From: Nanobdellota archaeon
Lineage (GTDB): Archaea > Nanobdellota > Nanobdellia > Woesearchaeales > DATDXC01
Direction: 5' to 3'
Assembly: GCA_043818675.1 (NCBI GenBank)
Contig: JBDRFR010000069.1
Coordinates: 14,877-78,876 of the forward strand
Length of the DNA stretch: 64,000 nucleotides
The number at the start of each line of letters is the position of its first letter. Within the stretch, counting starts at the first letter, position 1. A program made the translations under genes and the position numbers. Shown in pieces: positions 2,079-52,722 of this stretch. The notes below the pieces were generated by a model, which was not told the DNA's origin, did no database searches, and was given only the letters and a program-made list of their open reading frames with translations.

Positions 2079-2481
2079 TAATTGATTATTTTTACAATAA
2101 CTTTGAACCAGGGATTATTTTAAGTCTCAAGCTCAAGTTAGGGGTTAAAAATTCGATTGATTAACATTCGTTCTGAAATATTGATAATTCCATTAAAGAT
2201 ACAAGAGTGTTTGTTTGCCTAAAGATAACTCAGGAATTGAAAGTTTCTAGTGAAATTTCCAATAAAAAAGATTCCATACTATCCCTTAAAAAATTTCCAA
2301 CTAAGTGAGGATGAATTAACCCACTAAATTTCTTTTAAGATATGCAATAACCAAATACTATCCATTTCTCAGAATTACCTTTAAAAAACCAAAAACTTTA
2401 TAAATAAGTAGAATAATTTATACTAGTAATAATAACAATATAAATAATATTAACAATATAAGTTATTTAGGTTATATTTAT

Positions 2482-2700
2482 ATGTTAACAGAAAAGGAAA
2501 TAGAAGTATTAAAACTTAGAAAAAAGGGTTTAAAGCAGACAGATATAGCCAAAAGCCTCTCGATTTCTCAGCCTGCTGTCTCTGCTTTTGAGCGCAGTAT
2601 TTCACGCAAGATAAAGTCTTCAATAAGAATCATCTATTTTCTAAAAGAGGAAAAAATCGATCCGGTAAAATATTCTAAACGAGTCAAAAATGTTTACTGA
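2482..2700 (+). CDS. small Tfx/LuxR-type HTH DNA-binding protein (72 aa)
   Basis: LTEKEIEVLKLRKKGLKQTDIAKSLSISQPAVSAFERSISRKI matches the archaeal Tfx N-terminal / sigma-70 region-4-like HTH pattern. It is a tandem paralogue of the next gene. Confidence 0.7.
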   Translation: MLTEKEIEVLKLRKKGLKQTDIAKSLSISQPAVSAFERSISRKIKSSIRIIYFLKEEKIDPVKYSKRVKNVY

Positions 2701-2881
2701 TAAAGAGATACAAGTGCTAAAGCTAAGAAAAAAAGGGTTAAAACAGATAGAGATAGCAAAAGCGCTGAATATTTCCCAGCCTGCTATATCATCTTTTGAA
2801 CAAAACATTGCCCGCAAGATAAGATCTTCAGTTGAGGTATTAGGATTAGTCAAAGAGCTGGGCATTGATATTGAAAAATGA
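2690..2881 (+). CDS. small Tfx/LuxR-type HTH DNA-binding protein (63 aa), tandem paralogue
   Basis: FTDKEIQVLKLRKKGLKQIEIAKALNISQPAISSFEQNIARKI. It overlaps the upstream paralogue by 11 nt, and its stop overlaps the next start (ATGA at 2878-2881). Confidence 0.7.
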   Translation: MFTDKEIQVLKLRKKGLKQIEIAKALNISQPAISSFEQNIARKIRSSVEVLGLVKELGIDIEK

Positions 2882-5133
2882 ATAAACCTAGAAAACACAA
2901 AAGCGATGTAATATTTCTGCTAATTGCACTAATAGCTTTGATTGTCATAGGCCTGTATATAGGCCCTGCTTATACAGGCTATGTTACATCAGTCAAGACT
3001 TTCACTTATACAGACTCGCTTGGTATTGAAACAAACAAAAGCATTGACAGGTTATGGATCGTCAATAACGCAACTGAAATGAATTCAGTTAGTCTAAGCG
3101 GCAGTGTTTCACTAGAAGGCACTGCTAAAGTATATATTGAATCAGACAGCATATCTTATCTGATTTTTGACTCTGAACTGGTAAAAGAAACCCAGGGCTT
3201 ATCAGCTATTACAACCATTATACCTTTTGAATCAAGCAATGTAAATCTAGAGTACTGTCCTGGCTCTGTATACGATTCAGACAATGACGGTGTTGAAAAT
3301 ACAAACGCGATTATTGACTTCACAGTAAACCAAAGCGGCTTTTCACTAAATAGAAATAATCTATGCACCAGATGGTCTGTCTTAAGCTTAGACAACGGCA
3401 CAAAAACAACTGTTTGTTACGGCGACAGGCTGTGCTGCAATTTCATCGGTCTTGTTCCTTCTGCAGCATCATGGGATAATGTATTCTACCTGAATTATGG
3501 CGCATATAGTTCAACTTACAATAATATTGTAAGTGCCCAGATAATCTCTGTCGACTACAATTTAAGTTTAGATAACCCTTATACAAACATTAGTTATTCA
3601 GATTCTGAAAATTTGTCAGCATCATTTATCCCTGCCAGCGTATCTTTTAACGATATTTGCATAGAAACCTGCTCAGTGAATTTCAACGGATCTATGTATA
3701 ATCTGATTATTGAAGCAGACGGAGCCAGTATAAATCTTGATACAATAAGTTATACCTCCTTAAAAGAGATACCCAACACTGCCCCTGTCTTTGACCATAT
3801 CCCATCATTTAAGATTGATAAAGAGCTAAAGATCAATTTATCCGATTACGCGTCTGACCTGGACAACGACACATTAGATTTTATTGCCTCTCCTGCTGAT
3901 AATCTGTCAATCCGCATTTCAGGGAGTATAGCATCCATTATGCCTGATACATCGTTTATCGGCAAGAGATATATCTACTTTGTAGCAAATGATACTATTG
4001 ATATTGCAGTTTCCAACACAATTGAGATTAACGTTGGAAGGGATGTAGTTGTCAACAAGTCAGAATCAATTAAGCAAGGTGTAGCTGTTATCGGTAAGCC
4101 AGTAAGATGGGTAAAAAGCATCAAGCTTAACGATTCAGTCTATAATATCAGCGTCAACATATCTGATGATGCTATTAATTTTTCTGTTAAGAACGTAAGG
4201 TATGGCTTATCTGAGAGTATTAACTCAAGCAGCATAAAAGTCATCGATAATGGAAAAGAAAAGAACGTAACAGAATACATTAACGATAAAAAAGTAGAGA
4301 TCCTTGAAAAAAAGATCCAGAAATTAGAAGACGCAAAAAAATACAAAACCAAAAAAGAACTTACAGAGATAAACCAAAGATTAACCGACTATAAAAATGA
4401 AAAGAATAAGATAACTGGATATGCAGTCAGTCAACAATATGAAGGTATATTAACCAGGTTATATGATTGGATTTTTAATGTTGGCATAACAGGCAATGTT
4501 GTATTCGAACAAAACCAATCTTCAGCAAACAATACCCAGCTGATCATTGGCGAAGTGGTTGAAGAGTTAGAGATCGAATACTATACAGAAGGTCCGATCG
4601 CAACAGAAATCAATATTTCGCCTGATAAGAAACAGATCATTGTAAGTTCTGATATACACTATGAAAATATCCTGACTTATACCTACCTGCAGCCAGAAGC
4701 AGAAAGAAACGCATTAAAACTCTTCTGGCTTGTAAATGACACTAAAAAACAGGTTAACTTTTCAGCATTTGATACAGACTCAGACGGCTTAATTGACTAT
4801 ATACAATGGATAACGCCAAGCCTTTCTAACCAGACTTATGAATTAGAGATAACAGTATTAAACGTTCAGTCGTATCCGACAGTCGGCGGGAACTGGACTG
4901 TAGAGTTTGAAACTTCTGGCAGCGCAAATCTGACCATTAGTGCTTATTCACAAACAACATTTGCAGAAATTTATGATAATTCATCAACAGAAGATGACCT
5001 GGAATTTTTAGAAGTGAAATGTAATTCTACAATTTTGAATGCTTCTGTTGTTCTAGAAGATGGTACTGTTGTTCCATATGAAGTTTATCTGAAAATTAAA
5101 AGGATCAAAGAGATTGATGAGGTGCTTAGATGA
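2878..5133 (+). CDS. membrane-anchored/secreted surface protein (751 aa), paralogous at its N-domain to the 1342-aa protein
   Basis: N-terminal anchor KSDVIFLLIALIALIVIGLYIG. A Cys-rich conserved domain is shared with 58418-62446. A cadherin/Ig-like segment is present (NTAPVFDHIPSFKIDKELKINLSDYASDLDNDTLDF), plus a coiled-coil stretch KKVEILEKKIQKLEDAKKYKTKKELTEINQRL. Many N-x-S/T sequons. Confidence 0.75.
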   Translation: MNKPRKHKSDVIFLLIALIALIVIGLYIGPAYTGYVTSVKTFTYTDSLGIETNKSIDRLWIVNNATEMNSVSLSGSVSLEGTAKVYIESDSISYLIFDSELVKETQGLSAITTIIPFESSNVNLEYCPGSVYDSDNDGVENTNAIIDFTVNQSGFSLNRNNLCTRWSVLSLDNGTKTTVCYGDRLCCNFIGLVPSAASWDNVFYLNYGAYSSTYNNIVSAQIISVDYNLSLDNPYTNISYSDSENLSASFIPASVSFNDICIETCSVNFNGSMYNLIIEADGASINLDTISYTSLKEIPNTAPVFDHIPSFKIDKELKINLSDYASDLDNDTLDFIASPADNLSIRISGSIASIMPDTSFIGKRYIYFVANDTIDIAVSNTIEINVGRDVVVNKSESIKQGVAVIGKPVRWVKSIKLNDSVYNISVNISDDAINFSVKNVRYGLSESINSSSIKVIDNGKEKNVTEYINDKKVEILEKKIQKLEDAKKYKTKKELTEINQRLTDYKNEKNKITGYAVSQQYEGILTRLYDWIFNVGITGNVVFEQNQSSANNTQLIIGEVVEELEIEYYTEGPIATEINISPDKKQIIVSSDIHYENILTYTYLQPEAERNALKLFWLVNDTKKQVNFSAFDTDSDGLIDYIQWITPSLSNQTYELEITVLNVQSYPTVGGNWTVEFETSGSANLTISAYSQTTFAEIYDNSSTEDDLEFLEVKCNSTILNASVVLEDGTVVPYEVYLKIKRIKEIDEVLR
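3253..3630 (+). other. conserved Cys-rich domain (copy 1 of 2 in window)
   Basis: DSDNDGVENTNAIIDFTV...LCTRWSVLSLDNGTKTTVCYGDRLCCNFIGLVPSAASWDNVFYLNYGAYSSTYNNIVSAQIISVDY aligns by eye with DNNSDGVEGDKSVIDFTV...LCTRWEILSVDTNKMTTVCYGNNVCCNFIGLTATKNKWNDIFYLNYGQYDASVNNKVSARVLYVDY of the 1342-aa protein. Confidence 0.7.
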
Positions 5134-5200
5134 GGCAAATACATATAAATTACAATATACAACTTAGTATGTACATATATACAACTATAGGTGAGAGGAT

Positions 5201-5704
5201 ATGATACCCAAAGGAAAAGATGCTCTTGAAAAGGAATATAGCAGGTGTTTAAATAAAAAAACATTTGTAAAAATCAGTAATGCAAGTTATATAGATTATC
5301 TAGATGAAGCATACTTTGATTTAAATTCTGCAGAGAAGGATACAGATGAAAAATGGGCTATAACTAAAGCATATCAAGCTTTGTTTTTGACTTGTAACGC
5401 ATTATTAGTCCGAAAGCTTGGATACTATTCAAAGGATCATAGTTGCGTTATTATTTCTTTAATGAGAAATAATATTATTTCTGAAAATACCCTTGAAAAA
5501 ATTAAGGATATGCTAAATGAAAAAAGAAAATTATTTTCAGAACTGCAAAGTAAAAATAATTTATTTGATGAAATATCAAATATTAGGATTACAAGGAATA
5601 AATATCTGTACCTTCCAAAGACTCAGAGAAGGTTAAAGAGTTCTGTAAAAGGAATAATTGAGGAAGTAAAGGAATTGATCAAAATTCTGGGTGATATAGA
5701 ATGA
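5201..5704 (+). CDS. HEPN-domain protein (167 aa)
   Basis: HEPN-like helices YIDYLDEAYFDLNSAEKDTDEKWAITKAYQALFLTCNALLVRKLGYYSKDHSCVI and an R-N-x-x-x-Y motif (IRITRNKYLY). SD GGTGAGAGG lies upstream. The stop overlaps the start of the adjacent nucleotidyltransferase gene (ATGA 5701-5704). Confidence 0.55.
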   Translation: MIPKGKDALEKEYSRCLNKKTFVKISNASYIDYLDEAYFDLNSAEKDTDEKWAITKAYQALFLTCNALLVRKLGYYSKDHSCVIISLMRNNIISENTLEKIKDMLNEKRKLFSELQSKNNLFDEISNIRITRNKYLYLPKTQRRLKSSVKGIIEEVKELIKILGDIE

Positions 5705-6303
5705 TCAGTGAAATACTGCCGCTTACCAAAAATAAACTTGAGATTTTTAAATATATTTACGAGAAAAAAGGGTCTCATCTTTTGGATATATCAAAAAATC
5801 TAAAAATACACCCTTATAGTGTTCAAAAGACCTTAAAGTCTATTAAGAAATTGTTTGTCGAGAAAAAAGCAGGAAGGACAATTATTTTGTCACTTGATAA
5901 GAACCTTCCAGGTTATTTTGAACTTCTTTATCTAATTGAGGACTATAAGCTTACAATTGATAGTAAAGATTTGAAAATACTGATAAGAAATCTGAAAGAA
6001 TTCTTCTCCAAAGATAAAAATGTGCTAAGTTGTGTTTTGTTTGGGTCATTTGCGCGGAATGTTTCTGGTGAAGATATTGATTTACTATTTTTGGTTAAGA
6101 AGAGATCAGATTATGTTATTGAAAAATGTTCCCAGCTTTCAACATTATTTGGAAAAGAAGTATCTCCTTTAGTCATGTTAGAAAAGGAGTTCAAGTCTGC
6201 TTTACAAAGTAAAGAGCCAACTATTATATCGATATTGGAGCCTTCTCAGCGGCTTTTGGTTGTCGGAAAAGAATACTTTTTGAGGTTTAGTTATGATGGA
6301 TAA
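5701..6303 (+). CDS. wHTH + minimal nucleotidyltransferase (MNT-like) protein (200 aa)
   Basis: NTase signature VLFGSFARNVSGEDIDLLFLV (GS...D-x-D) preceded by a winged-helix-like N-terminus (LEIFKYIYEKKGSHLLDISKNLKIHPYSVQKTLKSI). It is paired with the HEPN gene. Confidence 0.65.
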   Translation: MISEILPLTKNKLEIFKYIYEKKGSHLLDISKNLKIHPYSVQKTLKSIKKLFVEKKAGRTIILSLDKNLPGYFELLYLIEDYKLTIDSKDLKILIRNLKEFFSKDKNVLSCVLFGSFARNVSGEDIDLLFLVKKRSDYVIEKCSQLSTLFGKEVSPLVMLEKEFKSALQSKEPTIISILEPSQRLLVVGKEYFLRFSYDG

Positions 6304-7225
6304 GATAAACTGTAAATGTTGTGCAGGCGAAAATATTGTAAAGAGAGGATTAAGAAGGTTAAAAAAGAGTACTAAGCAGGTTTATTTCTGCAAAGATTGT
6401 AATCATAGATTCTCCTTAGGGCTAAGTAAGAAAAAATTTGATATTAAGGTAATTTTGACTGCAGTTTCTGCTTATGCTCAAGGATATAACTATTCTGAAG
6501 TTTATGACTTGATATCAAGAAAAAGTAAAGTTATTGTTTCAAAAAGTTCTGTTGAGAGGTGGGTCAAAGAGTTTGATCTGGGTTATTTTGCTATTAGAGA
6601 GAGGATTGTTAAAAAGTATGGTTCAGATTTATTTATCCAAAAGATGTTTAAGCATTCTGGTTTAGTTTATAATTTCAAATTTCATAAAGGAAAATTAAAT
6701 GAGTTTGGCAAATTTGATGGGCTGAAAAAGTTTATTGTTTCTGTTGGGAAAGGAATTGATGATAAATTGTTTAATTCTTCTGCCAATAGATGTTCTCAGA
6801 CTAAAACAGATGTTTCTGTTGATGTTAAGGTTTATGTGAGTAAATTGAATAAAGTTGTTGGAGATGCTTTAAAAGTTGTTAGAAGTAATAAACAAAGGCA
6901 TTCTGTTGTTGAAAAGCTGATGCTGCATTGTGATAGAGATACTGTTGCAGTTGAAGTTCCTGTTTGGTACTGGGATAAGAAAAAAAATATTTCTGTTTGT
7001 GGACATATTGATATTTTACAGGTTAAGTTTGGGAAGGTTTGGATTTTTGATTATAAGCCAAATGCTGGATCTGAGAATTATGATTCTGTTGTTTCGCAGT
7101 TGTTTAATTATGCTCTTGGAATTTCGTTTAGGTCAGGTGTTAAGTTATCGGAAATCAAATGCGGTTGGTTTGATGAAGTTAAGATGTACGTTTTTGATTC
7201 AGATAAGGTGAGGATTCATGGTTAA
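6293..7225 (+). CDS. Zn-ribbon + PD-(D/E)xK (RecB/Cas4-like fold) nuclease (310 aa)
   Basis: N-terminal CKCC...CKDC zinc ribbon. C-terminal nuclease motifs appear in the canonical order: VEVPV (E), CGHIDIL (D), IFDYKP (D-x-K), SQLFNYALG (Q-x-x-x-Y). Confidence 0.55.
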   Translation: MMDKINCKCCAGENIVKRGLRRLKKSTKQVYFCKDCNHRFSLGLSKKKFDIKVILTAVSAYAQGYNYSEVYDLISRKSKVIVSKSSVERWVKEFDLGYFAIRERIVKKYGSDLFIQKMFKHSGLVYNFKFHKGKLNEFGKFDGLKKFIVSVGKGIDDKLFNSSANRCSQTKTDVSVDVKVYVSKLNKVVGDALKVVRSNKQRHSVVEKLMLHCDRDTVAVEVPVWYWDKKKNISVCGHIDILQVKFGKVWIFDYKPNAGSENYDSVVSQLFNYALGISFRSGVKLSEIKCGWFDEVKMYVFDSDKVRIHG

Positions 7226-7518
7226 GGAAATTAAAATGAGTAGTAGGCCCGTCTATCCTACTGACCGTATCAAAGGCACGGGGTTCGTCAGGACCTGTTC
7301 CTCAATGAGTAATAAGATTATGGGGCATATAAAATTTTTGGAAAAAATGGATGGATTTAATGTAAACTGTTTAAAGAAAATTATGCCACGATTCTGGGAA
7401 AAAAATGTCTCTATGATGGGAACTAAAATAGGTCTCGATATTGGGAAAAGTTTTGGATTTTTTGAATTGGTTTTAGAGTTTATTAAGGTTGGATTAAGTT
7501 TATTTTGCATAAAAGAGG

Positions 7519-10500: not shown

Positions 10501-13500
10501 GACATTGTGGTCGGAGACCAAGCTGCTGTTAAAGGATATGATAACGATTCAACCAATCTATGGAATTTTAATTTACCCTCGGATGATATATCCTCAATCT
10601 CCGTAGGAGACATCGATAGCGATGGTGATAAGGAGATTATTGCAGGGGGCCTTACAGACGGTACAGTATGGGTACTTAATAGAACTGGCAGCTTAGAATT
10701 TAGCTATAAAATTGGAACCGGCCATATTGGAAATACCTTCTATGCAAGCTCTCCATCAACTGATATTTCTGATGTTAATAATGATGGAATAAATGATATA
10801 GGTGTTGGTATCTATCTAACTAGTGATGATAGTTATGGATATATCTTCCAGGACGTCTCCTGCACAATAAAATTCAACGATTCTGCAACTATTTATAACA
10901 TGACATGGGATTACGTTACTGACAAATGGAATTACTCAAGAACGTTTTCGAATAATGTTGTCTATGCATATAATGTAACCTGCAGTAAAGGTGGCTATGT
11001 AACTCAAATCCAGGAATCAACAGTTGATTTAACACAGACCTTAATAATATGGGACGACTCTAACTCAAAAGTAACATATGCAAATTACACCAAATTTTAT
11101 GCAAATTACACCAAATCAAACGGAACCCCATTGACAGGCAGCGGTGAATGGTGCGAGTTTGCATTCAATAAAACAGGCCTTAACTGGAGCTTTTATACCG
11201 CCTATAACATGAGCTATAATCCAACTACAAAATTATACGAGATAATTGCTGATGGCGGCTATATTAAAAATAACACAGAATCGCATATTGGCGGGATGCC
11301 TGTTGGCAATTATAGCTTTAATATTTCCTGCTATGGCGGCAAAAACTTAACAGCAACAGACACAGTAAATGTTGCTAAGTATGATACAGGTTTATCTTTA
11401 ACACAGTCAAATGTTCATGCTGATATTAACACAGATGTTGAGTTCTTTGCTAATTACACAAGAGATACTGTATGGAATGTGGACAACTGGTTCAGAGATT
11501 CAGGAGAAATTGGCAGAGTTATATGGAATAGCAGTGATGTTGGAAACAGTCTTGTTGCACTAAGACCAGCTGACTTATCTAATGACGGATATCTGTCTGA
11601 TATAGTTACAGTAAATGACTACAAGATTATTGCACACTATCAAAACGGATCAGTAAGGTGGACTTTTTCAACTGGAGTTATCCAACAGGCAGGATCCTTA
11701 AACATTGTCAATCTGGATAACGACGGATTTAAAGATGATATAATTACAAAATTCTCTTATAACATATTTGTCCTTAATAAGACTGGTGATCAACTAAACA
11801 AAACAACTGTTGCAGACGGCGGTTGGGGAATTGGAGTTGCTGGTGATGCAAATAATGACGGAATAGAAGATGAGTTAGTAGTATCAGGCGTAAATTCTAA
11901 TCCGGCAATATTATACAATATATCTAACAGCGGACTTTCTGTTGTTAAACAATGGAATTTTTCAGTACCAGATGATATGAGGGAAGTAATATTCGGAGAT
12001 TTTGACTCAGACGGTTTGGATGATGATTTTGCAATTAGTGGAGTTGATTCAGGAAAAGGAACTTATGTTTATAAATGGAACGGGACAAATTTATTTAATG
12101 TAACTTATGGTGGACTTGCTATTGCCAAAGCTGATATTGACCATGATGGTTTTGAAGATGATATAGTGATTGCAGAAAACGGCAATTATCTTGTTTATTC
12201 TTTTAATGGAAGCTATAATACAAAATACACAAGCACAGATGAAGCAATGGTATACAATACAGATCCAATATCAGTATCCGCAGAGATGATTGTACTGGAT
12301 TTGGATTCAGACGGATTTAATGATGACATCATACTGGGAGATAGAGGCGGAGCAGCTGGACCTGGAATTGTCTGGGCATTTGACAACAATAGTATTGGAT
12401 TGTGGAATATCACATTACCTGCAAACGGAGATGATGATTACATCTATTCCATGGTCGTTGATGATTTTAATAACGATGGTAAACAAGAATTGATCTTTTC
12501 CAGTGAAGAGTTTGATAAAGTTTATGTTGCCAATCTGTCAGGATATGTACTTTGGGACCAGATCATTGGACAAGGAGATATCTCAGTGATTAAAGGAAAA
12601 TCTCCTGGCATCATAAGTATTGACATAAATAAAGATGGAATTTCTGATTTTGCGACCGCTTCCGCAAATGGTTTTGTCCATGTTCTGCAGGACGTATCCT
12701 GCACAATCCAATATGAATCAGAAGGTGGAGAGATTAACAGGACTGGTCAGAATTGGGAAAATGGTTTAGTTGCTCTATATCATTTTAATAATGAGTCTGC
12801 ATATGGCGAAACAACTGTTGGAGTTAATAATGTAACGTATGACTTTGCACCAGGTCACTGTTATGATAACGAAACAGAAATACTAACTAATGAAGGCTGG
12901 AAATTATTTTCAAAATTAAATAAAACTGAGCAAGTAGCAACATTAAATCAGGAAACAAAAGAATTGGAATGGCAGCATCCAATGGAATATCAAGAGTTTG
13001 ATTATGACAATGATATGTATAAGATTATATTGGAGGATGGATCAGATTTACTTGTTTCAGAAAAACATAGGGTTTATGGAAAATCAGTAAGCATCATCGT
13101 GATGAGTGAAATCTTCAAAGATGATCTTATTTTCTCTGACCTGGAAAGTCAGGACAAAATGCCCCACATGAACTCTTTTGAGATGGCTCAAATCCCCTTT
13201 GAGGTTCTTAAGGTGATTGATGGTGACAATATCCATTTCAGAAATTTGGATAATTTTTCTACTCAAAGCTTTGAAGAGAACAGGGTCTTTTCTCTTAATC
13301 TTGATCAGAGCCTTATCAATCTTGGAAATGTCAATATTCATAATTCATCCAGCCACTTTTTTAGTTCTTCGGGAGTCATTGCCTTGCCTTTAGCTGGGTC
13401 TTTAGATATTTTCTTTAACTTTTCTATGAACTCAGGCTTCATAGGAAATTCATCTAATGGATGCCAGTCAATAGATTCACAAAACTGCTCATCTTCCCTA

Positions 13501-16500
13501 GTTAGTTTCCTTGATACACGAAATTCTTCAAATATTCTTCGCTTGTTCAATTCCTCTCTAGCTGCTTCAGACCAGTTTATCCATGGAAATGCTTCAATTC
13601 TTGCCTTAAAGGATTTGTCTACAGGATATATTATACTAGCCATTTATAATTCACCCCTTGCCCTTAATTTTTCTAATGCTTCTAATTTCTTAAGCACACC
13701 CTGTTTTGCAACTTCAGACCAATTAATGTCAGGATGCTTGTCTAACTTTGCCTTAAAATCATCAGGTACTGATATAGTAAACCTTTCCATTTTTGATGCC
13801 TCCTGGATGATACAAGATAATAAAATTTTGGGTTCATCCAACAATTGTATTACTAAACACAATTGTGTTTATAAATCTTTTGATAATTTCAAGTTGATGC
13901 CTATAACTGATGCGTATGGGCTAATCAATTCAGGAAAACAGGTTTATTTCCTGGATGGTTTTAATAATGAGGTTAAAGTTAAGTCGATTGTTAAAGAAAA
14001 GTACAATGGCAGAATATATGATGTCGATGTAAAAAATGATGTTGTTTTGGTAAGAAGGATTGATAGGAATAATCGCACAAATAATTATGATAAAAAAGCC
14101 ACGCAAGCAGGAAAAAATTCATGCCACAATTCTGGGAAATATTGTTATGATAAAAGGACTAAGGAAAACTTCTTTTCTGAAAATGAGGATGGTTTGGGTA
14201 TATTGAGTGAGAGGGGTTATGAAACTAATTATTATGGTATATGGTCTGGGAATAGCAATAACGGAACTATTTATGGTGCTACAGTTGATATGACTGGTGG
14301 GAAGTGGAATGGGAGTTTGGAGTTTGATGGGGCGGGGGATTATGTTGATGCTGGAGATACATTTGATATGGGAACAAATGATCTGTCATTATCTGTATGG
14401 TTTAAAACATCTGATAGTGGTTCAAAAATTAAAACAATTATTTCAAAATCTTATGCATGGGATACAGGTGCATATAATTTGATTATTACTGCTGGTAATA
14501 ATCTAAGACTTCATGCTGAGAATAATACTGGTCAGGGTGAAGTAGATATAATAAGTCCTCTAACTTATACTGATGGACAATGGCATCATGCAGTAGGTAT
14601 TTTTGATAGAGATAAAAATGCAATATTATATGTTGATGGATCTGAAGTTGGTTCAACAACAATGGCAAATATTCTTAATCAGGATCTGGATACTACCTAT
14701 TCATTTAGAATTGGAATGTCACATTGGAATAGTTGGCCCAGACCTTTCAACGGCTCAATAGACGAAGTTGCAATTTGGAACAGAAGTCTTTCTGAATCTG
14801 AAGTCTGGGACTTGTACATGTCGTCAGCACCAAAATATAACATGACATGGGACTATACAAGAAAGAAATGGAACCATACAAAACAGTTCACTTCATACGG
14901 TAATTATACTTACGGAATAACATGCGAAAAAGGCGGCTACACAACCCAAAGAAGCTCAAGTTATGTTGATCTAACCCAATCATTAACAATATGGGATGAT
15001 TCTGATTCAAAAACAGCCTATGCAAATTACACCAAATTTTATGCAAATTACATAAGATCAAACGGAACAGCAATGAACGGAAACTATTGGTGCGAGTTTA
15101 AGTTCAATAAGACAGGCAGATGGACAAAACCAGTCAATATGAGCTTTAATCCAGTAAGCTTACAATATGAAATAATTGCTGATGGCGGATATATTCAGAA
15201 TTCAACTGAAACGCATATTGACGGGATGCCTACTGGAAATTACAGTTACAATATCTCCTGTTATGGTGGTGAATATAAATCACTAACAGATACTGTAAAT
15301 ATAGCAAAATATGATACTGCACTTGCTTTAACCCAAACAAACATCCATCCAAATACCTATTCAGATGTTGAGTTCTTTGCTAATTACACAAGGGCTACTG
15401 TATGGGATGTAGACAACTGGTGGTGGGATACAACTGAGATTGGGAGGGTGGTTTGGAATACAAGTGCTCTTGGAGGGAGTTCACATACTGTTGATTTCTT
15501 TGATTGTTTGAATAGTGGAAAGAAAAATTGCCTTGCGACCACAGAATATTCTGATATCTGGATGTTTTATCCAAATGGAACACAGATTACAGCATCTGGA
15601 ACTGCCTCAAATCCAGGAGGAGATTTATTAGATGCTAATGTTTTTGACGGAGATGGAGATGGTTATGAAAATGAGGTTCTTATTGTTGGAGATAATAATC
15701 AGGTTTTAGTTGTTAACGAGACAAGAAATACTGTGTATACCTATACTGCTGGAGGAGATATTTTTTCTGTTGTTGGAGCTGATTTAGATAACGATGGAGT
15801 CAAAGATGATTTTGTTATTGGTGCTTATACTGGGTCTGTTTATCAGGTCATGGCATTTAATACTTCTGATGGAGTTAATTGGGTGAATTTTTGGAACGGA
15901 ACTGTTGGAGGAGTTATTCAGGAAATGGTTATTGGTGACTTTGATAGAGATGGAAGGGAGATTGATGTTGCTGCTACAGGGACTTCGAATGGAAATGTTA
16001 CTGTTTTTGTTGGGGATAATGGAACATTGATATTTAGTACTGTTGACCTTGGGGCATTATCTTCACTTACAGTGTCTGATTTGAATCATGATAATTACAA
16101 TGATGAGATAATCGTGGGGGAGACGGGTGCCACTAGGGTTCTTGCGTTTAGGTGGAATGGGACATGGGGAGCAGAAATGCAAGATACAGACAATGATACT
16201 AATGGTTGGCTTTGGTCAAACACTCTTCCAACATACAGTATTACTGAAATTGATACTTTTGATGCAGATTTAGATGGTTACAAAGATGAGATTATTTTTG
16301 AAGATGGAGGCAGTTCATCAAACTCAAAAATTTGGGCAGTGGATGAAGAGGGCAACTACTTGTGGAATTTTACATGGGGGAACACAATTGATGTTTCATA
16401 TAGTCTTAATGTTGCTGATGTGAATAACGATGGAAAGGATGAGATAATTTTTGGACCTAGGAATGCTGCTACATTGTATGTTTTGAATATCTCTGGAGAT

Positions 16501-40500: not shown

Positions 40501-43500
40501 GACATAGACGACGGCAAATACTATTATCTTAAGCTCACTGCTAATTATACAACCTTAAACAATGCATTGACTGACACTGAACCCAACGCTATTTTATACC
40601 GTGACGTCACCGCTCCAACCATCATTTCAAAGAATAAGAAGAACATTGCGCCAGGTAGTGACGTGAACCTAACATTAAACATTACTGACAATGTTAATGT
40701 TTCAACTGTCATTGCTCAGCTGACCTATCCAAATATCACAGGCAATATATCCACCATAATTAATTATACAGCCTCCTATACAAACGGATTATATATTATC
40801 AGCTTATATGATTTGGTCCATATAGGCGATTATGATATTACATACTATATTAATGATACAACAGGCAATTCCCTAACCGACACAGACAATTTCGAGGTTT
40901 ATTTGATAAAACCCAGATTTTCCGGAACCATATCTGACTATCAGGGTAATGGTGTGCCATCTTTTTGGGAATTTTATAGGTCAAACACCTCTACCCTTCT
41001 CACGAATATAACGACTAACTCAACAGGAAGATACAATAGCGGAGATATTCATAACCGGACTTATGACCTTAGAATTAGCGCTCTTGGCCATAAAATAATC
41101 ATTAAAAATCTGAACTTCACAACAATTAAAAATGACGCAATAGACCTTGATTTGATTATTGGCACTGACATTGACACAATTATTACTAACTACAGGCCGT
41201 TAAAAGGTATCGGTGTTAATACAACCTTTAATGTAAGCTATGTCAACTTCACGATTAATTATAGCGGCACAAGTCCTGTATCAGAAACAGGCATAAAGAT
41301 TTTTAGATGTTCAAACTGGTCTTATAAGGTCAGAATTTGCGATAACACCTGGACAGAATTAAACAGCACTGTTTATGTTAGCAGGGATATAGTAATCGCT
41401 TCTTCTTCAGGATTTTCTGCATATATAGCTGCCGAGCTAAAATGCGGCAACGGCATATGCGAAGAGATATACGGTGAAACTTCAGCAAACTGCGCAGCTG
41501 ACTGCATAACAGCCCAGGGTCCAGCTTCAATTTCTGTTAGCAGCGGTGGTGGCGGTGGTGGCGGTGGCGGAGGCAGCGGACTGTCAAAAGAAGACTTAAG
41601 AGCTGAATTAGAAGCATTAAACTTGCTAAACATTACTGATAAGATTGAAGATATTGTCAAAGCCACAAAAAAACTGGCAGGTGTAGAAATGGCGACCACC
41701 TCGATATATAAGGAGCTTTTCCCAAAAGAAGACGCCTCAGCAAGGATTAGGATGCGAAACACTCTCGATACCAACATCAGATTAAACACCAAAGTTGAAG
41801 GCGCTGTAAAAGATTTTGTATTCTTTGAAAATTATGCAGTAACTCTTTCAGGCGGTGAAGAAAAAGACATTATAGTAAGAATAACCATCCCGCAGTTTAC
41901 AAAACCTGGATCATACGATGGTGACATTATTTTAATGCGTGACAATGAAGAGGTCAGGATCCCGACGACCATTAGAGTTTTACAGGAAGAAGGAAAACTT
42001 TTAGACGTCAAAATCCAGCCGTTAGTAGACTCAATCTCGCCTGGCGAAACTCTGCTTCTTCGAACAGACTTGATAAACCTTGGTAAGACTAAACGTGTGG
42101 ATGTCCAGTTTAAGCTGCAATTAACCGACCCCAGGACAGGTGAAATACTAAAAGAAACAGAAGAGGCATTTGCAATCGAGACATCACTAACAACAACAAA
42201 AGAACTTGAGATTCCAAAAGAGATCAAATTAGGCAAATATTTAGTTCAGGGCACTGCATATTATAGCAGTCTTGAAGACCGTAATCAGGAAGCAGTATCT
42301 ATTGCAACCATAAACATCCAGCAGCCATTTTTAGAAAGGGAATTTTTAGGCATTAAGAATGAAAGTTATATGTTCGGATTTATTATAGCTTTAGCATTGA
42401 TTGCACTGTTTATTTTCTACACATATAAGCAGAAAAAGAAGAAACGGTACATTAAGGTAATAGATCTTAAAACTTTGCCAAAACCCGGAAAGAATTCTGG
42501 ATTTATCGGTAAGATAGCAGAAACAGGCATTAGGACTTTCATTGACATTAACAAGCTTCAGACACATACACTTATAGCTGGCGCAACAGGCAGCGGTAAA
42601 ACAATAGCTATCCAGGACATTATCGAAGAGTCTCTTTTAAAAGGCATCAGTGTGATAGTCTTTGATCCTACTGCTCAATGGACCGGCTTTTTAAGAAAGT
42701 GTAAACAGCCGTCTATGTTAAAACGCTACAGTTATTTTGACATGAAGCCAAAAGACGCAAAAGCTTTCAAAGGCAACATCAGGACCATTACAAATCCGCG
42801 TGAGATTATTGAAATTAAGCAATTCATGGCTTCAGGTGAGATCACAATCTTTAACACAAGCAATCTCGAGCCAAAAGAGATGGACATTGTAGTAGCATCG
42901 ACTGTCCAGCAAATATTCAAGGCAAACCTAGAGGAAAGCCCTGACCTAAAAACTCTGATAGTCTATGACGAAGTTCACCGGCTGCTTCCAAAATTCGGCG
43001 GCAGCGGCAAAGGCTTTATACAGGTTGAAAGAGGCGTTAGAGAATTCAGGAAATGGGGTGTTGGCATTGTATTGATAAGCCAGGTGCTCAGCGACTTCAT
43101 CGGTGAGATCAAAGCTAATATAGGCACAGAGATCCAGTTAAGGACCCGTTACGAAAACGATCTCGAAAGGATCAGCATGAAATACGGTGAAGATATTCAA
43201 AAATCTATTGTAAAGGCCGCTGTAGGAACAGGTATGATCGTCAATGCTGAATATAACCATGGCCGCCCATATTTCGTCAGTTTCCGGCCAATACTTCATT
43301 CAATAACAAAAATAAATGACAAAGACCTTGCTAGTTATACACAATACGCAAAACGCACAGAGGATATTACTTACCAGCTTGAACAATTAAAACTTTTAAA
43401 TGTTGACATATTTGATTTAGAATTAGAGCTGAAGTTGTCCGATAGTAAAATTCGTTCCGGCCAGTTTGAAATGGTCGAGATTTACCTAAAATCTCTTGAG

Positions 43501-43857: not shown

Positions 43858-44919
43858 ATGAAACAAAACATGGTCCCGCCGGATATTGAACAGTCCTCAG
43901 ATGAGGAAGTAATTGAAGAAGAGTCTGTTGAAGAAAGGGCCGATATATCAAAAGAAGTAGCATTTGAAAAATTAAAAACCCAGCTTGAATCATTAAACCA
44001 GGTAAGGGAAACCAATAATGAGCGATTTTCAAGGATTAGTGAGCAAATAGGTGAAATTCGCAGCATGGTTATTGAAAACGAGAAGAATATGCGTGATGTT
44101 AGTATTAAAGCCACAATGGCCTCTGATTCTGTTAAAGAAGTAAAACCAGAAATTTTAGGGACCCAGGTAAGAAAAATCGACATGAAGGTTGAAACATTAA
44201 AACAAAAAATTGAGGCTAAAAACGTAATGGACAATATGATCATGCAGGAGCTTAAAGAACTGAGAGCAAAAATTAACCTTTTCAAAGGAACTGACGCAGT
44301 TTTAAGCCTTAACGAAGAAGTAAAAAATGAACTAATCAATATCTCCAAAATTAAAAATTCTGTTGAGATTCATGCAGACAAGGTTGAACAGGTTTTCGTC
44401 CATATTCAAAAGAACTTTGTAGAATTCGAAAAATTAAAAAGCCAGAATGAAAATATGCTGGCTGTAAGTTCAGCATTGCAAAAACAAGTAAATGGCCTTC
44501 AGACTCAATTAAAAACCATATCTACAAAAGATGATTTAAGCAGGTTTCGCAAAACCATAAACGATAACCTTAGCTCTATTAATAAATTCTCAAAAAATTT
44601 AAGAAAAAATAAGCAGCTGATAACTTTGCTAAAAAAGATAGAATTTCGTCTTCAAAGCATGGTTTTTGATAATAAAAAAAAGATCGGCGAATTAAAAGAG
44701 GAAGACGGAACAATAAAAAGCAGCATAGCAGAAATTGACTGTCATCTTAGCACTTTGTCAAAAAAAATAAAAAGCGCTACTCCAAAAAATCATATTAAGC
44801 ATGTCAAAAAACACTTCATGCTCCATAAGAAAAAATCAGGGATCATATTAAAAACTCTTGAAAAAATTGAAAATAAATTTTTTAGATGGTCAAAAAAATG
44901 TCAAAAGAAGAAGTTATAA
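43858..44919 (+). CDS. coiled-coil protein (353 aa)
   Basis: An acidic N-terminus is followed by long heptad-like K/E/L/I/N-rich sequence (LKTQLESLNQVRETNNERFSRISEQIGEIRSMVIENEKNM...). The gene starts 42 nt after the giant gene stop. Confidence 0.6.
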   Translation: MKQNMVPPDIEQSSDEEVIEEESVEERADISKEVAFEKLKTQLESLNQVRETNNERFSRISEQIGEIRSMVIENEKNMRDVSIKATMASDSVKEVKPEILGTQVRKIDMKVETLKQKIEAKNVMDNMIMQELKELRAKINLFKGTDAVLSLNEEVKNELINISKIKNSVEIHADKVEQVFVHIQKNFVEFEKLKSQNENMLAVSSALQKQVNGLQTQLKTISTKDDLSRFRKTINDNLSSINKFSKNLRKNKQLITLLKKIEFRLQSMVFDNKKKIGELKEEDGTIKSSIAEIDCHLSTLSKKIKSATPKNHIKHVKKHFMLHKKKSGIILKTLEKIENKFFRWSKKCQKKKL

Positions 44920-45770
44920 AAAACGCTGTTGAGAAGTTAAACAAAGACTACGAAAAAGCCAGAATAGAAGAAAATAAGGCACAAGCCATGCTTGCAAACT
45001 ACAAAAAACTGCACGATGCAGAAAAAGCTATATTAAAAAGCAAAAATGACCAGCTTCAGGCTGTAAAGCTTAAAGCTGACAAAATCAGAGAAGAGCTGAA
45101 AATCGCAGAAGAAGACTTCGAAGAAGAAAAACTGCGCTTAATAGATATTGAAAATGCAGAGCAAAAAGCAGGCCAGGATATTAAAACAAAAAATAAGCAG
45201 ACACTGGAGATTGCAGAGCATATAAAAGACATTATTGAGGAAGAAAATAGCGTTAAGGCTGCAAAAAATAAATATAATAAGATCCGGCAATTATATGACA
45301 ATGCAAAAATGGAGCTTGAAAACGCAAAAAATAAAGCAGAAGCAGAGATTAAGAAAACACTTAAAAGCGAAGGCGTGCAAAGGGTTACTAAAGCTCATTT
45401 AGAAAAAGCCAAAACATTTATTGACCAAAATTATATATCTAAAGATTTAGAACAGGAAATAAAAACTGACGAAATGATCAGAAAAGACCTTGAAAAAGAA
45501 GAGCTTCTCGATAAAGAGATCCAGGTTGACGAAAAAATAATTGAAGAAGATACCAATTTAGAAGACCTTCAAAAACTGAACAAGGATTTAGAGCAGGAAA
45601 TAAAAGAAAAAAAGAAAGAAGAGAAGGTTATCGACAAAGACCTGAACCAAAAAAAGGAAGAAGGATCTTTAGCCAAAAAATTTCTTGGCAAGCTAAAACA
45701 AAAAGTCCTGCCCAGTAAAGAAGACGATTTAGAAGATCTTGAAAAAAGGTTTAAGGATTTGGATGATTAA
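44886..45770 (+). CDS. K/E-rich coiled-coil protein (294 aa)
   Basis: Charged heptad-like repeats run throughout. It overlaps the upstream gene by 34 nt and converges on rfcL with a 20-nt overlap. Confidence 0.55.
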   Translation: MVKKMSKEEVIKNAVEKLNKDYEKARIEENKAQAMLANYKKLHDAEKAILKSKNDQLQAVKLKADKIREELKIAEEDFEEEKLRLIDIENAEQKAGQDIKTKNKQTLEIAEHIKDIIEEENSVKAAKNKYNKIRQLYDNAKMELENAKNKAEAEIKKTLKSEGVQRVTKAHLEKAKTFIDQNYISKDLEQEIKTDEMIRKDLEKEELLDKEIQVDEKIIEEDTNLEDLQKLNKDLEQEIKEKKKEEKVIDKDLNQKKEEGSLAKKFLGKLKQKVLPSKEDDLEDLEKRFKDLDD

Positions 45771-51785: not shown

Positions 51786-52526
51786 CTACGTTAATTCTAC
51801 ATAAAAGTAATAAACAGTTGACGCATCATCATCTCCGTTATCTGCAACCAGCATCTGAAAATCCCATATATTTCCGTCAAACCCTACTGTATTTTGGCTG
51901 ACTTCTGTTGCATATATCACTGTATTCTGATTATATTCTGTAAGTATTGTTTCATTAAAATAACTGGTCTGCGCCCCATTATTATCATACGTATTTGTTG
52001 AACGGCAGTTTAGGAGCTCCCTTGTACCGATTGTAATATTGCTGTATCCTCTGAAAGTCTCATCTATTCCGTCACTATCAGAGCTCGCCATGCCGTACAT
52101 TGACTCAAGCGTTGTATGATTGATTCCCTGTGTTCCAATAGAGCCATTGCCGCTAAAGTTTACACAATTAACATTGCCCCAATCTACTACCGTATTGTTT
52201 GCAGCATATATTTCACCGACCGGAGAAAAGCTTGAACCACCTGTCCAATCAAACATTGTATTGCCGCTTGCATCACCAAGGACAACTTTTCCGGAGATAT
52301 TACCATAGTATCCCTGCCATCTTTTTGTAACAATTGTAGTATTAATTGTAAGTTGCGTTACATTGCCTGCCTGTGCTCCAAGAGCCTGCGGATCCCCTGT
52401 TATATTAGTTCTGCTCGTAGTAACATTTTCAATAGAAGTAGGGCCATATGGATTGGCTAGAGTGATAGGTATTAAAATCGCTGCCACTAATAAAATTATT
52501 GCAATTCTTTTCATTGTTGTTTTCAT
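51786..52526 (-). CDS. secreted N-glycosylation-sequon-rich protein, paralogue 1 of 4 (246 aa)
   Basis: Signal peptide MKTTMKRIAIILLVAAILIPITLA. The conserved body is PYGPTSIENVTT...WQGY(Y/F)GNISG.VVLGD..GNTM.DWT..SSFSP.GEIYAAN...VDW..V.C.N..GNGS...GIN...LESM.GM...D.DGIDETF...YYFYVEL. Confidence 0.8.
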   Translation of the reverse strand: MKTTMKRIAIILLVAAILIPITLANPYGPTSIENVTTSRTNITGDPQALGAQAGNVTQLTINTTIVTKRWQGYYGNISGKVVLGDASGNTMFDWTGGSSFSPVGEIYAANNTVVDWGNVNCVNFSGNGSIGTQGINHTTLESMYGMASSDSDGIDETFRGYSNITIGTRELLNCRSTNTYDNNGAQTSYFNETILTEYNQNTVIYATEVSQNTVGFDGNIWDFQMLVADNGDDDASTVYYFYVELT

Positions 52527-52722
52527 TATAGCAAAGGACGTATTTTTACGAATAGCTGCATATCCTCAACAAAAGTGCATTATGTCCGCTATCATATCTG
52601 AAAACAATCACGCTTTCGTTTACATTCACATTTAATTACGTTTACGTTCACAATCCAAAGTAAGCATGAAGGATCTAAGGCAGTTGCCAAAATGTTTTAG
52701 ACACACCCTTAGTCCGTTGAAT

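Follow-up and report, generated by a model that had tools for sequence, protein, structure and literature searches.

The stretch of DNA analysed here (64 kb, the window throughout) belongs to a Nanoarchaeota (DPANN) MAG and carries two gene arms on opposite strands. Each starts with two small DNA-binding genes and each runs, as the initial annotation had described, to a gene encoding an ectodomain, a transmembrane (TM) segment and an ATPase (the giant and the 774-aa protein, respectively). The plus arm and the genes that follow it are, in order:

2397-2481, plus strand: candidate promoter/operator with TATA-like TTTATAAATA at 2397-2406 and ATAAGT at 2404-2409 and 2458-2463
2482-2700, plus strand: HTH1, 72 aa, LuxR/GerE-type (Tfx N-terminal-like) DNA-binding protein
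2690-2881, plus strand: HTH2, 63 aa, tandem paralogue of HTH1, also GerE-type, overlapping HTH1 and the 751-aa gene
2878-5133, plus strand: P751, 751 aa, short form of the type-A adhesin, with signal-anchor, Ig-like, Cys-rich Ig-like (3229-3630) and further beta domains
5201-5704, plus strand: HEPN gene (HEPN, E 2e-5), between P751 and the giant
5701-6303, plus strand: MNT-type nucleotidyltransferase gene (Polbeta/NTP_transf_2, E 2e-8)
6293-7225, plus strand: P310, with IS1-like Zn-ribbon/HTH N-terminus
7519-43815, plus strand: giant 12,098-aa ORF, a single open frame with probable start ATG 7525
~42358-42426 and ~42448-43707, plus strand: TM segment of the giant, then its cytoplasmic HerA/DUF87 ATPase and coiled coil
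43858-44919, plus strand: P353 (coiled-coil), directly downstream of the giant
44886-45770, plus strand: P294, downstream of P353

The minus arm reads in the opposite direction:

62872-63012, minus strand: candidate operator array with A[TA]TACA at 63007-63012, 62974-62979, 62904-62909 and 62872-62877
62717-62869, minus strand: RHH1, 50 aa, probable CopG/NikR-N-terminal-type ribbon-helix-helix protein with the classic RHH pattern
62443-62748, minus strand: RHH2, ~94 aa (likely start TTG 62727), probable RHH then coiled-coil tail
58418-62446, minus strand: P1342, 1342 aa, type-B adhesin (PKD, E 2e-11; full-length orthologues at 36-49% identity)
56097-58421, minus strand: P774, 774 aa, with signal peptide, ~240-aa Ig-like ectodomain, TM (~57600-57671), HerA/DUF87 ATPase and coiled coil
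55249-55881, minus strand: P210, wHTH protein with ArsR/HTH_20-like N-terminus
54368-55228, 53589-54332, 52723-53460 and 51786-52526, minus strand: four secreted ~245-aa paralogues (63-86% mutual identity)

The housekeeping genes previously placed between the arms, along with the four paralogues, are indeed found there and encode an RFC-like AAA ATPase, aRF1, an M50 protease, and a rhomboid protein.

HTH1 and HTH2 are 63% identical (E 2e-27) and both exceed the cut-off of the Pfam GerE profile (PF00196; 35.4 and 36.6 bits, GA 23.5). The best NCBIfam match of both is the N-terminal HTH of Tfx (TIGR00721; E 3.4e-11 for HTH1 at profile positions 7-60 of 137). We rejected full Tfx family membership, because at 43.2 and 42.1 bits they miss the cut-off of 60.25 and with only 72 and 63 aa they cover just the HTH part (positions 7-62 of 137); they are predicted to work like the Tfx HTH without being full members of that family. 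The overlaps noted before on this strand hold, with 11 nt common to the 72-aa and 63-aa ORFs and an ATGA (2878) linking the latter to the 751-aa ORF, and in L017 a single Tfx-like HTH gene (54-60% identical to HTH1) ends 4 nt before the orthologous adhesin gene. In the 200 nt before Tfx-like HTH genes, ATAAGT/ACTTAT occurs 2 to 4 times compared to 0.13 to 0.42 expected copies, as counted at six loci (the window, L017, L035, L043, L048, and L060) with per-locus shuffle p values from 0.0003 to 0.054, the window itself being marginal (p 0.054). These half-sites form a candidate operator that the HTH pair may bind.

P751 has no match in Pfam, and its domain model reaches a pLDDT of 90.4. Residues 601-738 match residues 630-759 of P0039, and residues 42-139 of the giant match the stretch directly after the P751-like part in P0039, P0074, P0167, P0059, and P0166. 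The same contiguity is seen with weaker support in P0012 and P0050, while the L017 orthologue holds the P751-like part and the giant N-terminal domain within one ORF. Since this continuity is unbroken in seven relatives, the plus arm reads as HTH-HTH plus one split giant gene, and P751 is, judged from these matches, evolutionarily the N-terminal module of the giant itself, for which a profile search finds no Cys-rich domain of its own. The split may go back to fission in the window or to fusion elsewhere; it is no recent accident, since three other contigs (L021, L089, and L095) also encode short forms that end in a PYEVYKIKKRIAEIKK-type C-terminal tail like that of P751. A putative HEPN-MNT toxin-antitoxin pair and the IS1-like P310 gene separate the two pieces. 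P310 matches the IS1 transposase N-terminus (E 7e-5) and the IS1/IS1595 Zn domain (E 3.5e-4), both below cut-off, and has full-length homologues at 30-33% identity in L040, L089, and L095; no terminal repeats or target duplication were found for these genes (5201-7225).

The probable start codon of the giant follows a GAGGT at 7 nt distance and precedes an N-terminal hydrophobic segment. The protein proceeds from a signal-anchor through LamG and FG-GAP beta-propeller repeats and Ig-like domains (Laminin_G_3 in multiple copies, E 1e-92; FG-GAP_3, E 6e-41; CARDB; NPCBM_assoc) to the TM segment, KKKKRY, the HerA/DUF87 ATPase (DUF87, PF01935, 43.7 bits, GA 23.2; HerA_C; ResIII, E 1.6e-6), and a coiled-coil-like tail. 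P353 and P294 have no match in Pfam, and a P353 homologue (36% identity) follows a 1435-aa ectodomain-TM-DUF87 gene in L013.

The regulators of the minus arm probably belong, as had been stated, to a different family, RHH instead of Tfx/LuxR-type HTH. RHH1 matches RHH_1 (PF01402; E 9e-4) with 19.5 bits, just under the GA of 20.5, and the NikR N-terminus (E 4e-5). RHH2 scores as an RHH protein only if started upstream of its first ATG (RHH_1, E 0.001, 19.3 bits, GA 20.5; Arc, E 0.003). Since the conserved beta-strand DVLVSVRMPESL of the orthologue alignment lies upstream of this ATG, the real start is probably TTG 62727 or a GTG and RHH2 overlaps RHH1. With this upstream start, the chain of overlaps described for RHH1, RHH2, and P1342 is correct; RHH2 overlaps the P1342 ORF by ATGA, and P1342 overlaps the P774 ORF by 4 nt. 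Orthologues of RHH1 are present in L013, L015, and L016 (52-70% identity) and those of RHH2 in L013-L016 (39-69%) and L051 (52%), with the beta-strand/helix/helix pattern kept in both alignments. The same tandem-duplicate layout had been proposed for both regulator pairs; this fits the paralogous HTH genes but not the RHH genes, which show no detectable similarity to each other and each have their own orthologues elsewhere.

In the ~300 nt upstream of RHH1, A[TA]TACA is about 10-fold enriched in the window and in L013, L015, and L016 (shuffle p <= 0.002 per locus). All copies but one lie on the coding strand, their spacings in the window are multiples of 11 nt or nearly so, and in the relatives they are often 11 nt apart. 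Small autoregulatory RHH proteins usually bind tandem repeats in the promoter, and this array is a candidate operator that may be bound by the RHH pair.

P1342 consists of a signal peptide, the Cys-rich Ig-like domain (61958-62365), PKD and other Ig-like domains, a coiled coil, a C-terminal TM segment, and a helical cytoplasmic tail of a type kept in 22 proteins. P774 scores 46.2 bits against DUF87 (GA 23.2), and its PDB sequence matches are HerA helicases (E 4e-6). It is paralogous to the giant C-terminus (44% identity over 606 aa, E 7e-161), Walker motifs are visible in their alignment (GSTGGGKT / GATGSGKT and hhhhDE), and both ATPases are firmly predicted to be HerA-like with DUF87 above cut-off. 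The minus-arm operon is kept in five other Nanoarchaeota/Woesearchaeota contigs (L013-L016 and L051) with components at 35-74% identity. There, P774 orthologues (55-74% identity) lie directly downstream of P1342 orthologues, and 5/5 other type-B operons have the RHH1+RHH2 pair, though the sequence of one ends ahead of RHH1. Homologues of P210 and of the ~245-aa paralogues follow the ATPase gene in L013 and L014 and lie upstream of the adhesin gene in L051, and a paralogue homologue is also present in L016. Conservation at such identities across five other contigs indicates that the two lineages have long been separate and speaks against the arms being recent alternative copies.

The Cys-rich domain said to be common to both large proteins stands up to formal alignment, with 49% identity (E 3e-39) between P751 residues 118-251 and P1342 residues 28-163, and a profile search of the window yields these two copies and no others. 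It represents an unannotated Ig-like family (534 cluster representatives) that occurs once per protein, with a CC pair among its four invariant Cys; searches of Pfam and of PDB sequences gave no match, and sequence identity to PKD, FN3, and Ig adhesion domains is 5-13%. Its named sources are all Nanoarchaeota/Woesearchaeota-type MAGs, bar a few records labelled Methanosarcinales. Since 0/183 other Cys-rich-domain proteins retrieved have an ATPase in the same chain, the type-A adhesin-ATPase linkage is documented only in the window. The initial annotation's paralogous surface-protein gene on each strand thus holds for this domain, but P751 as a module of the giant has no simple counterpart in P1342, and the arms are unlike in domain content and in size, with a ratio of about ten-fold. 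Their mirror image is no design either: a second ectodomain-TM-DUF87 gene sits on the same strand as the RHH operon both in L013 (upstream, with the P353 homologue) and in L016 (downstream).

At 62 of 88 related loci (70%), a recognisable small DNA-binding gene lies at most 2.6 kb upstream on the same strand; these genes fall into at least eight families and are often doubled. The upstream zone, 13.8% of the sequence searched, holds 71 of the 84 occurrences of these families, an adjacency statistic that is biased because the families were defined from upstream ORFs. Most type-A genes have a Tfx-like or other sigma70-r4-like HTH gene. Comparative genomics, the check proposed originally, supports that in other genomes the type of regulator goes with the type of structural gene but finds no conservation of the mirror orientation.

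Among known systems, the SPEARE giant proteins of Nanohaloarchaeota (PMC6642349; PMC10266531) come closest, as judged by architecture. In these proteins, a long LamG-bearing ectodomain leads to a TM segment close to the C-terminus, which is followed by a cytoplasmic ATPase and a final coiled coil; their P-loop domain with "type III restriction enzyme" (ResIII) matches has been re-read as a VirB4/TraG-like ATPase (PMC6642349; PMC10266531). Similarly, the giant is a very long, mostly extracellular DPANN protein with an N-terminal signal, laminin-G alongside Ig-like and beta-propeller domains, a single C-terminal TM segment, a ResIII-like/VirB4-like P-loop ATPase, a coiled coil, and further ATPase genes nearby, while P774 resembles SPEARE proteins in its TM, ATPase, and coiled-coil part. 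With 12,098 aa, the giant exceeds 9,409 aa, the reported maximum for a cultivated archaeon (PMC6642349; PMC10266531). However, the host lineage of the window is Nanoarchaeota, where Hamm et al. 2019 saw no similar sequences (PMC6642349). A gene of its own encodes the N-terminal Cys-rich Ig-like module, another version divided into 1342 and 774 aa lies in a conserved operon, and both modules are headed by small DNA-binding genes, a feature that we did not find described for SPEARE loci in these papers (PMC6642349; PMC10266531). Moreover, the window ATPases are nearest to HerA/DUF87 by sequence and do not match the VirB4 N-terminal domain PF03135, while their AAA_10, TrwB, and T4SS-DNA_transf P-loop matches are weak and below cut-off. 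With no VirB6/CedA-like partner gene among the scanned window proteins either, we rejected an identity as VirB4/type IV secretion ATPases.

The best NCBIfam matches of P774 are CedD (NF053655, E 8.8e-9), HerA, and TraD, but assignment as CedD fails at 34.6 bits (cut-off 600) over residues 302-368 only, around Walker A. In the crenarchaeal Ced system, DNA import needs both CedB and CedD, which form a pair of membrane-anchored HerA-clade ATPases (PMC11868833). The window likewise encodes two such paralogues, but Ced proteins lack a large ectodomain, and the window shows neither a CedA-like channel nor Ups-like pilus genes. The regulators resemble known autoregulatory RHH and LuxR/Tfx HTH proteins in domain type, small size, position as first operon genes, and repeated operator-like elements. 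They differ in that the HTH proteins carry the HTH part only (63-72 aa compared to a 137-position profile), that RHH2 has a long coiled-coil tail, and that the partners are giant surface-protein genes instead of plasmid copy-control, metal-uptake, or toxin genes.

We lean towards reading the arms as two paralogous, long-separated, and privately regulated surface-interaction modules of the SPEARE kind, though with modest confidence. Each module would comprise one or more small DNA-binding genes, an adhesin with a disulphide-rich Ig-like domain, and a type-I membrane ATPase of the HerA/FtsK superfamily. The minus arm would be an old conserved operon of RHH1, RHH2, adhesin, ATPase, wHTH protein, and secreted ~245-aa paralogues, and the plus arm the giant form, in which a duplicated Tfx-like HTH pair heads an adhesin in two pieces (P751 and the giant). 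With all junctions overlapping by 4-11 nt, the regulators and the adhesins are probably translated from a common transcript. The most likely binding sites are promoter repeats, with the RHH pair occupying phased A[TA]TACA and the HTH pair the ATAAGT half-sites, each in its own promoter. The outcome would be private, probably negative, feedback on the very costly surface proteins of each module, an autoregulation to which gene order and promoter repeats point in both cases. The modules co-occur in several genomes and would best be understood as two separately controlled systems, each with its own specialisation, instead of two states of one system.

The initial annotation had instead proposed alternative versions of one system, that is, mutually exclusive states or versions for different hosts with each regulator pair as a switch. 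The paralogous structural genes, the different regulator families, the multigene nature of Cys-rich adhesins (five loci in one MAG, L005, L006, L009, L011, and L012; two in another and two in the window), and their very variable ectodomains (238 to 2868 aa in complete genes) would all suit this idea. Yet both lineages are separate orthologous groups that are same-strand neighbours in L013 and L016, we looked for an invertible element or segment and found none, the two candidate operator motifs differ, nothing points to mutual exclusion, and the ten-fold gap in size together with domain content fits distinct roles. What remains are paralogous, separately regulated modules with the same basic order, and we consider alternative versions unlikely. 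It is similarly doubtful that the arms are parts of one apparatus whose ATPases cooperate like CedB and CedD of Sulfolobales, with the adhesins outside and the regulators balancing amounts. Besides the Ced precedent, this is favoured by the type-B operon adjoining a second ectodomain-TM-DUF87 gene in L013 and L016 and having one within 64 kb in the window, and in nanohaloarchaea a second VirB4-family ATPase gene comes after the giant-protein gene (PMC10266531). However, the arms of the window lie on opposite strands with housekeeping genes between them, the type-B operons of L014 and L015 have no second ATPase gene in the available flanks, and no CedA/VirB6-type channel was found among the window proteins scanned against Pfam.

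A host-contact DNA-translocation machine, with the giant for docking the symbiont, the HerA-like motor for pumping host DNA, and NikA/TraY-like RHH proteins for processing or guiding that DNA, appears very unlikely; if true, the regulator, adhesin, and ATPase module would be a DPANN-specific nucleic-acid uptake system. Also very unlikely is the idea that the small RHH/HTH proteins are relaxosome-like DNA-handling accessories of a HerA/VirB4-like translocase that takes up or transfers DNA. It could draw on the RHH gene abutting a type-A gene in L009, which matches mobilization protein NikA above cut-off (E 1.7e-8) and has homologues in L027 and L047, on a weak match of RHH2 to the ICE conjugation factor TprA (E 0.005), and on the NCBIfam matches of P774. 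These ATPase matches nevertheless cover the P-loop region only and stay far below cut-offs, no relaxase, nuclease, or oriT-like feature was seen, and so many unrelated families at the same upstream position fit interchangeable regulators better than a fixed machine part. Finally, we give almost no credence to the idea that the layout is meaningless, the small ORFs having arisen by chance or from annotation errors in AT-rich DNA: they are indeed short, and the RHH pair stays below the Pfam thresholds, but all four small proteins have 39-70% identical orthologues at the same position in other contigs, and both HTH proteins score above the cut-off for GerE.

DPANN archaea rely on contact with a host, for which giant SPEARE-type proteins are leading candidates, and we know of nothing reported on how these proteins are controlled. 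In the window and about 100 related loci, the adhesin genes mostly come with a private, presumably translationally coupled DNA-binding gene just upstream. The two conserved regulator/promoter pairs, RHH1+RHH2 with phased A[TA]TACA and Tfx-like HTH with ATAAGT, are tractable in vitro without cultivation and offer testable switches for host-attachment genes. The analysis further defines the unannotated Ig-like family as a marker of these adhesins, extends SPEARE-like architecture to Nanoarchaeota, from which it had been reported missing (PMC6642349), and provides a compact two-gene version (1342 aa + 774 aa), which is far easier to express and study than the 12,098-aa protein.

The window is archaeal DNA of about 35% G+C that includes housekeeping genes for aRF1, an RFC-like AAA ATPase, an M50 protease and a rhomboid protein. 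Because such genes lie between its two adhesin-encoding arms, a provirus or integrated element was rejected as the origin of the entire region. The plus and minus arms comprise the following genes:

2482-2700, plus strand: small ORF HTH1, overlapping the second small ORF
2690-2881, plus strand: small ORF HTH2, overlapping HTH1 and joined to the 751-aa ORF by ATGA
2878-5133, plus strand: 751-aa ORF (P751)
5201-5704, plus strand: HEPN gene
5701-6303, plus strand: MNT-type nucleotidyltransferase gene
6293-7225, plus strand: gene of a 310-aa protein (P310)
7519-43815, plus strand: giant ORF of 12,098 aa in a single uninterrupted frame
62717-62869, minus strand: 50-aa ORF (RHH1)
62443-62748, minus strand: second small ORF (RHH2), preceding the 1342-aa ORF
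58418-62446, minus strand: 1342-aa ORF (P1342), with a 4-nt overlap with the 774-aa ORF
56097-58421, minus strand: 774-aa ORF (P774)

Comparison with relatives shows the minus arm to be a conserved operon. Looking up four P1342 orthologues led to contigs L013, L014, L015 and L016 from different samples, and the metagenome scan added a fifth operon (L051), all with the common order RHH1, RHH2, adhesin and DUF87 ATPase (the L014 contig ends just upstream of RHH2). The encoded proteins measure about 50 aa for RHH1 (called with an 83-aa N-terminal extension in L016), 84 to 96 aa for RHH2, about 1355 to 1412 aa for the adhesin and about 765 to 782 aa for the ATPase, and they are 54% to 70%, 42% to 71%, 36% to 49% and 55% to 74% identical, respectively, to their window counterparts (47% to 57% for P210, a further window protein). 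In L013 and L014 the ATPase gene is followed by genes for an HTH_20/ArsR-like protein of about 215 aa, the counterpart of P210, and for a relative of the four paralogues found in the window; L051 has these two genes upstream of its adhesin gene. These four paralogues (51786-55228, minus strand) are secreted proteins of about 245 aa that are 63% to 86% identical, all end in "YYFYVEL(A/T)", have no Pfam match and could be surface-fibre subunits; their homologues occur in L013, L014, L016 and L051, in the first two immediately behind the genes for the ATPase and P210. In two relatives the RHH operon is preceded by a PocR-GAF-GGDEF (diguanylate-cyclase-type) gene, directly in L015 (263-1816) and with an intervening glycogen-synthase gene in L016 (952-2517). 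GGDEF proteins are unusual in archaea.

RHH1 is a textbook RHH protein with a score slightly below the Pfam cut-off. RHH2 matches RHH/Arc only if its start is moved upstream of the first ATG, and the strand "DVLVSVRMPESL" encoded there is kept in orthologues, so that the true start is TTG 62727 or a GTG and the gene overlaps that of RHH1. The initial annotation was thus right about the overlap and the position before the 1342-aa gene, but its reading of the pair as tandem duplicates was abandoned since the two proteins show no similarity when compared. The sequence ahead of RHH1 contains 4 to 6 copies of the hexamer A[TA]TACA in the window, L013, L015 and L016, on the coding strand with one exception and often 11 nt apart in the relatives, at about ten times background (shuffle p <= 0.002 in each locus). 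Repeat arrays of this kind are bound by RHH proteins, and we infer that the array is a candidate binding site.

The small genes of the plus arm are a Tfx-like pair, overlapping and running into the 751-aa gene through ATGA as described initially, and their products are 63% identical. Both score above the Pfam cut-off for GerE/LuxR HTH domains; in NCBIfam they match best to the HTH portion of Tfx, with scores under the cut-off, and both lack the C-terminal domain of Tfx. At the related locus L017, one Tfx-like HTH gene (53% to 60% identical to HTH1 and HTH2) ends 4 nt before the adhesin gene, so that the tandem pair of the window is a lineage-specific duplication. ATAAGT/ACTTAT hexamers occur in 2 to 4 copies upstream of Tfx-like HTH genes at six loci, palindromic beside a TATA-like box at several of them; the two copies in the window are marginal taken alone (p 0.054).

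Judged from the sequences of its relatives, the plus arm is an HTH-HTH pair followed by one split giant gene, to which the 751-aa gene belongs. In the related proteins P0039 (1108 aa, from L017), P0074, P0167, P0059 and P0166, a single ORF runs from a region like P751 residues ~600-740 into one like giant residues 42-139, and P0012 and P0050 show the same continuity with weaker support. The last ~30 residues of P751 and giant residues ~42-72 align to one segment of these fused proteins, and P751 and the giant have a common reading frame. The N-terminus of the giant is hydrophobic, and 7 nt ahead of its probable start, ATG 7525, lies a ribosome-binding-like GAGGT of its own, so both pieces look functional. 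A one-off recent disruption was rejected as the cause of the split because short forms with the P751-type tail "PY(E/S)VYKIK(K/R)RI.EIKK" recur in L021, L089 and L095. Terminal inverted repeats and a target-site duplication were sought around the 5134-7518 insert and not found; the event may have been a fission or a fusion. Full-length homologues of P310, which is encoded in this insert, lie near Cys-rich adhesin genes (30% to 33% identity; L040 656-1687, L089 10564-12109 and L095 5689-7221), in L089 and L095 a few genes downstream of the short form with the P751-like C-terminal tail. The N-terminus of P310 weakly matches an IS1-type zinc-ribbon/HTH, and its C-terminus has a possible PD-(D/E)XK motif.

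Toxin-antitoxin pairs flank adhesin genes repeatedly: HEPN-MNT follows P751 (window 5201-6303), MNT-HEPN lies immediately upstream of RHH and adhesin genes in L009 (1962-2920), and a ParE/RHH_12/DUF2283 cluster comes right after the short-form gene in L020 (7835-8596). Within the giant, residues ~1545-2010 (window ~12150-13550) form a Hint/intein-like stretch that begins "CYDNETEILTNEGW" and has no Pfam Hint match at E <= 0.01. Three small minus-strand ORFs there (13084-13862) resemble a toxin-antitoxin cassette, encoding an 85-aa RelE/ParE-like protein ending in "HHDDAY", a 101-aa protein and a 72-aa RHH-like protein; the giant frame stays open through them as a Ser/Leu/Asn/Phe-rich stretch resembling antisense translation.

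That the large proteins of both arms share a Cys-rich domain was borne out by formal alignment (134 to 136 residues, 49% identity, E 3e-39). The family profile finds exactly two copies in the window, in P751 and P1342, and none in the giant. Word-index searches with the isolated domain returned no homologues, the domain has no Pfam match, and a PDB profile search gave no significant match. A metagenome scan with a 2-sequence alignment likewise gave no relatives, but a 5-sequence alignment succeeded, and the exhaustive profile search that proved necessary recovered 534 cluster representatives (478 at E <= 1e-10) of about 180 to 7172 aa, each with one significant domain on re-scanning. Two architectures recur. 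In type A, to which P751 belongs, a hydrophobic segment at the N-terminus is followed by an Ig-like domain and the Cys-rich domain, after which the protein ends at about 550 to 1100 aa or extends into a LamG-rich giant. In type B, to which P1342 belongs, a signal peptide precedes the Cys-rich domain, which thus lies at the mature N-terminus; PKD and Ig domains come next, then a C-terminal TM and a helical cytoplasmic tail that is conserved among 22 proteins. Nearly all type-A proteins carry the motif P-x-x-T-G-[YF] after the hydrophobic segment (e.g., GPAYTGYV, KPTITGYA, GPSITGFV; P751 residues ~25-36, window 2950-2985). A related "ITG[YF]AV" occurs in mid-P751 (residues 512-518, 4411-4431) and at ~1165-1175 of P1342 and in its orthologues, just before the C-terminal TM; these motifs may be processing or anchoring signals.

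Small DNA-binding genes are a partner of the adhesin genes across the family. The survey covered 101 related loci, of which 12 came from reference genomes, 9 from look-ups and 80 from metagenomes. In 88 of them at least 900 nt precede the domain, and 62 of these 88 (70%) carry a recognisable small DNA-binding gene on the same strand, no more than 2.6 kb upstream: a 157-194-aa protein with two sigma70-r4-like HTH units (43 loci), Tfx-like HTH (5), DUF7557 (4, two of them internally doubled), the RHH1 and RHH2 pair (4), NikA-like RHH (3) or other RHH types (3). By eye, a few further loci have wHTH, AbrB-like or RHH-like genes upstream. The 2.6-kb upstream zone makes up 13.8% of the sequence searched and holds 71 of the 84 occurrences of these families, a figure somewhat biased because it was their upstream position that first drew attention to these families. 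The DNA-binding unit is doubled in three ways, as two genes (the window HTH pair), as an internal repeat (the two-unit HTH protein and DUF7557) or as two different RHH genes (type B). The commonest partner, the undescribed two-unit protein, has the tandem repeat pattern "IP.SIF...LS.LE..VKYLKE...L.Y..IA.LL.R..RTIW..Y.RAKKK" and occurs in L007, L008, L010, L018, L019 and about 40 metagenome loci (e.g., L022 444-962); the internally doubled DUF7557-type partners are those of L058 and L088.

Each arm indeed contains an ectodomain-TM-ATPase gene, and P774 aligns with the giant C-terminus over 606 residues at 44% identity. The two share an Ig-like ectodomain, a single TM helix with a basic stretch behind it, a DUF87/HerA ATPase that scores above the Pfam cut-off, and a tail of coiled-coil type. 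An AlphaFold model of their ATPase region, built from two sequences, was of low confidence (pLDDT 50.2) and was not used to compare folds. A general link from type-A adhesins to a downstream ATPase was rejected because the downstream gene in L059 and L075 encodes a P774-like ectodomain and TM with a short tail in place of the ATPase. None of the other 183 family proteins retrieved has an ATPase in the same chain as the Cys-rich domain, and complete type-A giants end in a TM and a short tail. Similarity of the giant to P774 is detectable from roughly 200 residues past a poly-Gly stretch at residue 11,343, and the ATPase part may have been gained through fusion with a downstream gene.

Mirror symmetry of the arms as a conserved design was rejected on comparison with the relatives. 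In L013, the RHH operon is preceded on its own strand by a 1435-aa CarboxypepD_reg-DUF87 gene with a homologue of the window protein P353 after it; in L016, a small RHH gene and a 1289-aa CarboxypepD_reg-DUF87 gene lie downstream, again on the same strand. The two types of module therefore tend to lie next to each other, but the inverted layout of the window is not conserved and is incidental. Of the proposal that the arms are two differently regulated versions of one system, paralogous modules with separate regulators remain, as long-diverged lineages rather than two states.

The closest described architecture is that of the SPEARE proteins of Nanohaloarchaeota, which are very long and combine LamG with further adhesion domains, a TM close to the C-terminus and a conserved cytoplasmic region with type III restriction-enzyme matches (PMC6642349); later work reinterpreted this region as a VirB4/TraG-like ATPase with a coiled coil behind it and a second ATPase gene adjoining (PMC10266531). 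A ResIII match is also seen in the window ATPase, which is nearest to HerA/DUF87 by sequence. Hamm et al. found SPEARE-similar sequences in several DPANN lineages, not in Nanoarchaeota (PMC6642349). Literature searches found no account of the coupling to regulators, of the family of Cys-rich domains or of an RHH-RHH-adhesin-ATPase operon, and nothing on DPANN with DUF87. The interest of the system lies in its concrete, testable regulators and in a compact two-gene version of a SPEARE-like adhesin-ATPase system. The top NCBIfam match of P774, confined to the P-loop and far below cut-off, is CedD, a membrane-anchored DNA-import ATPase of Sulfolobales (PMC11868833). The giant ORF (12,098 aa) is longer than the largest protein reported in a cultivated archaeon (9,409 aa; PMC10266531).
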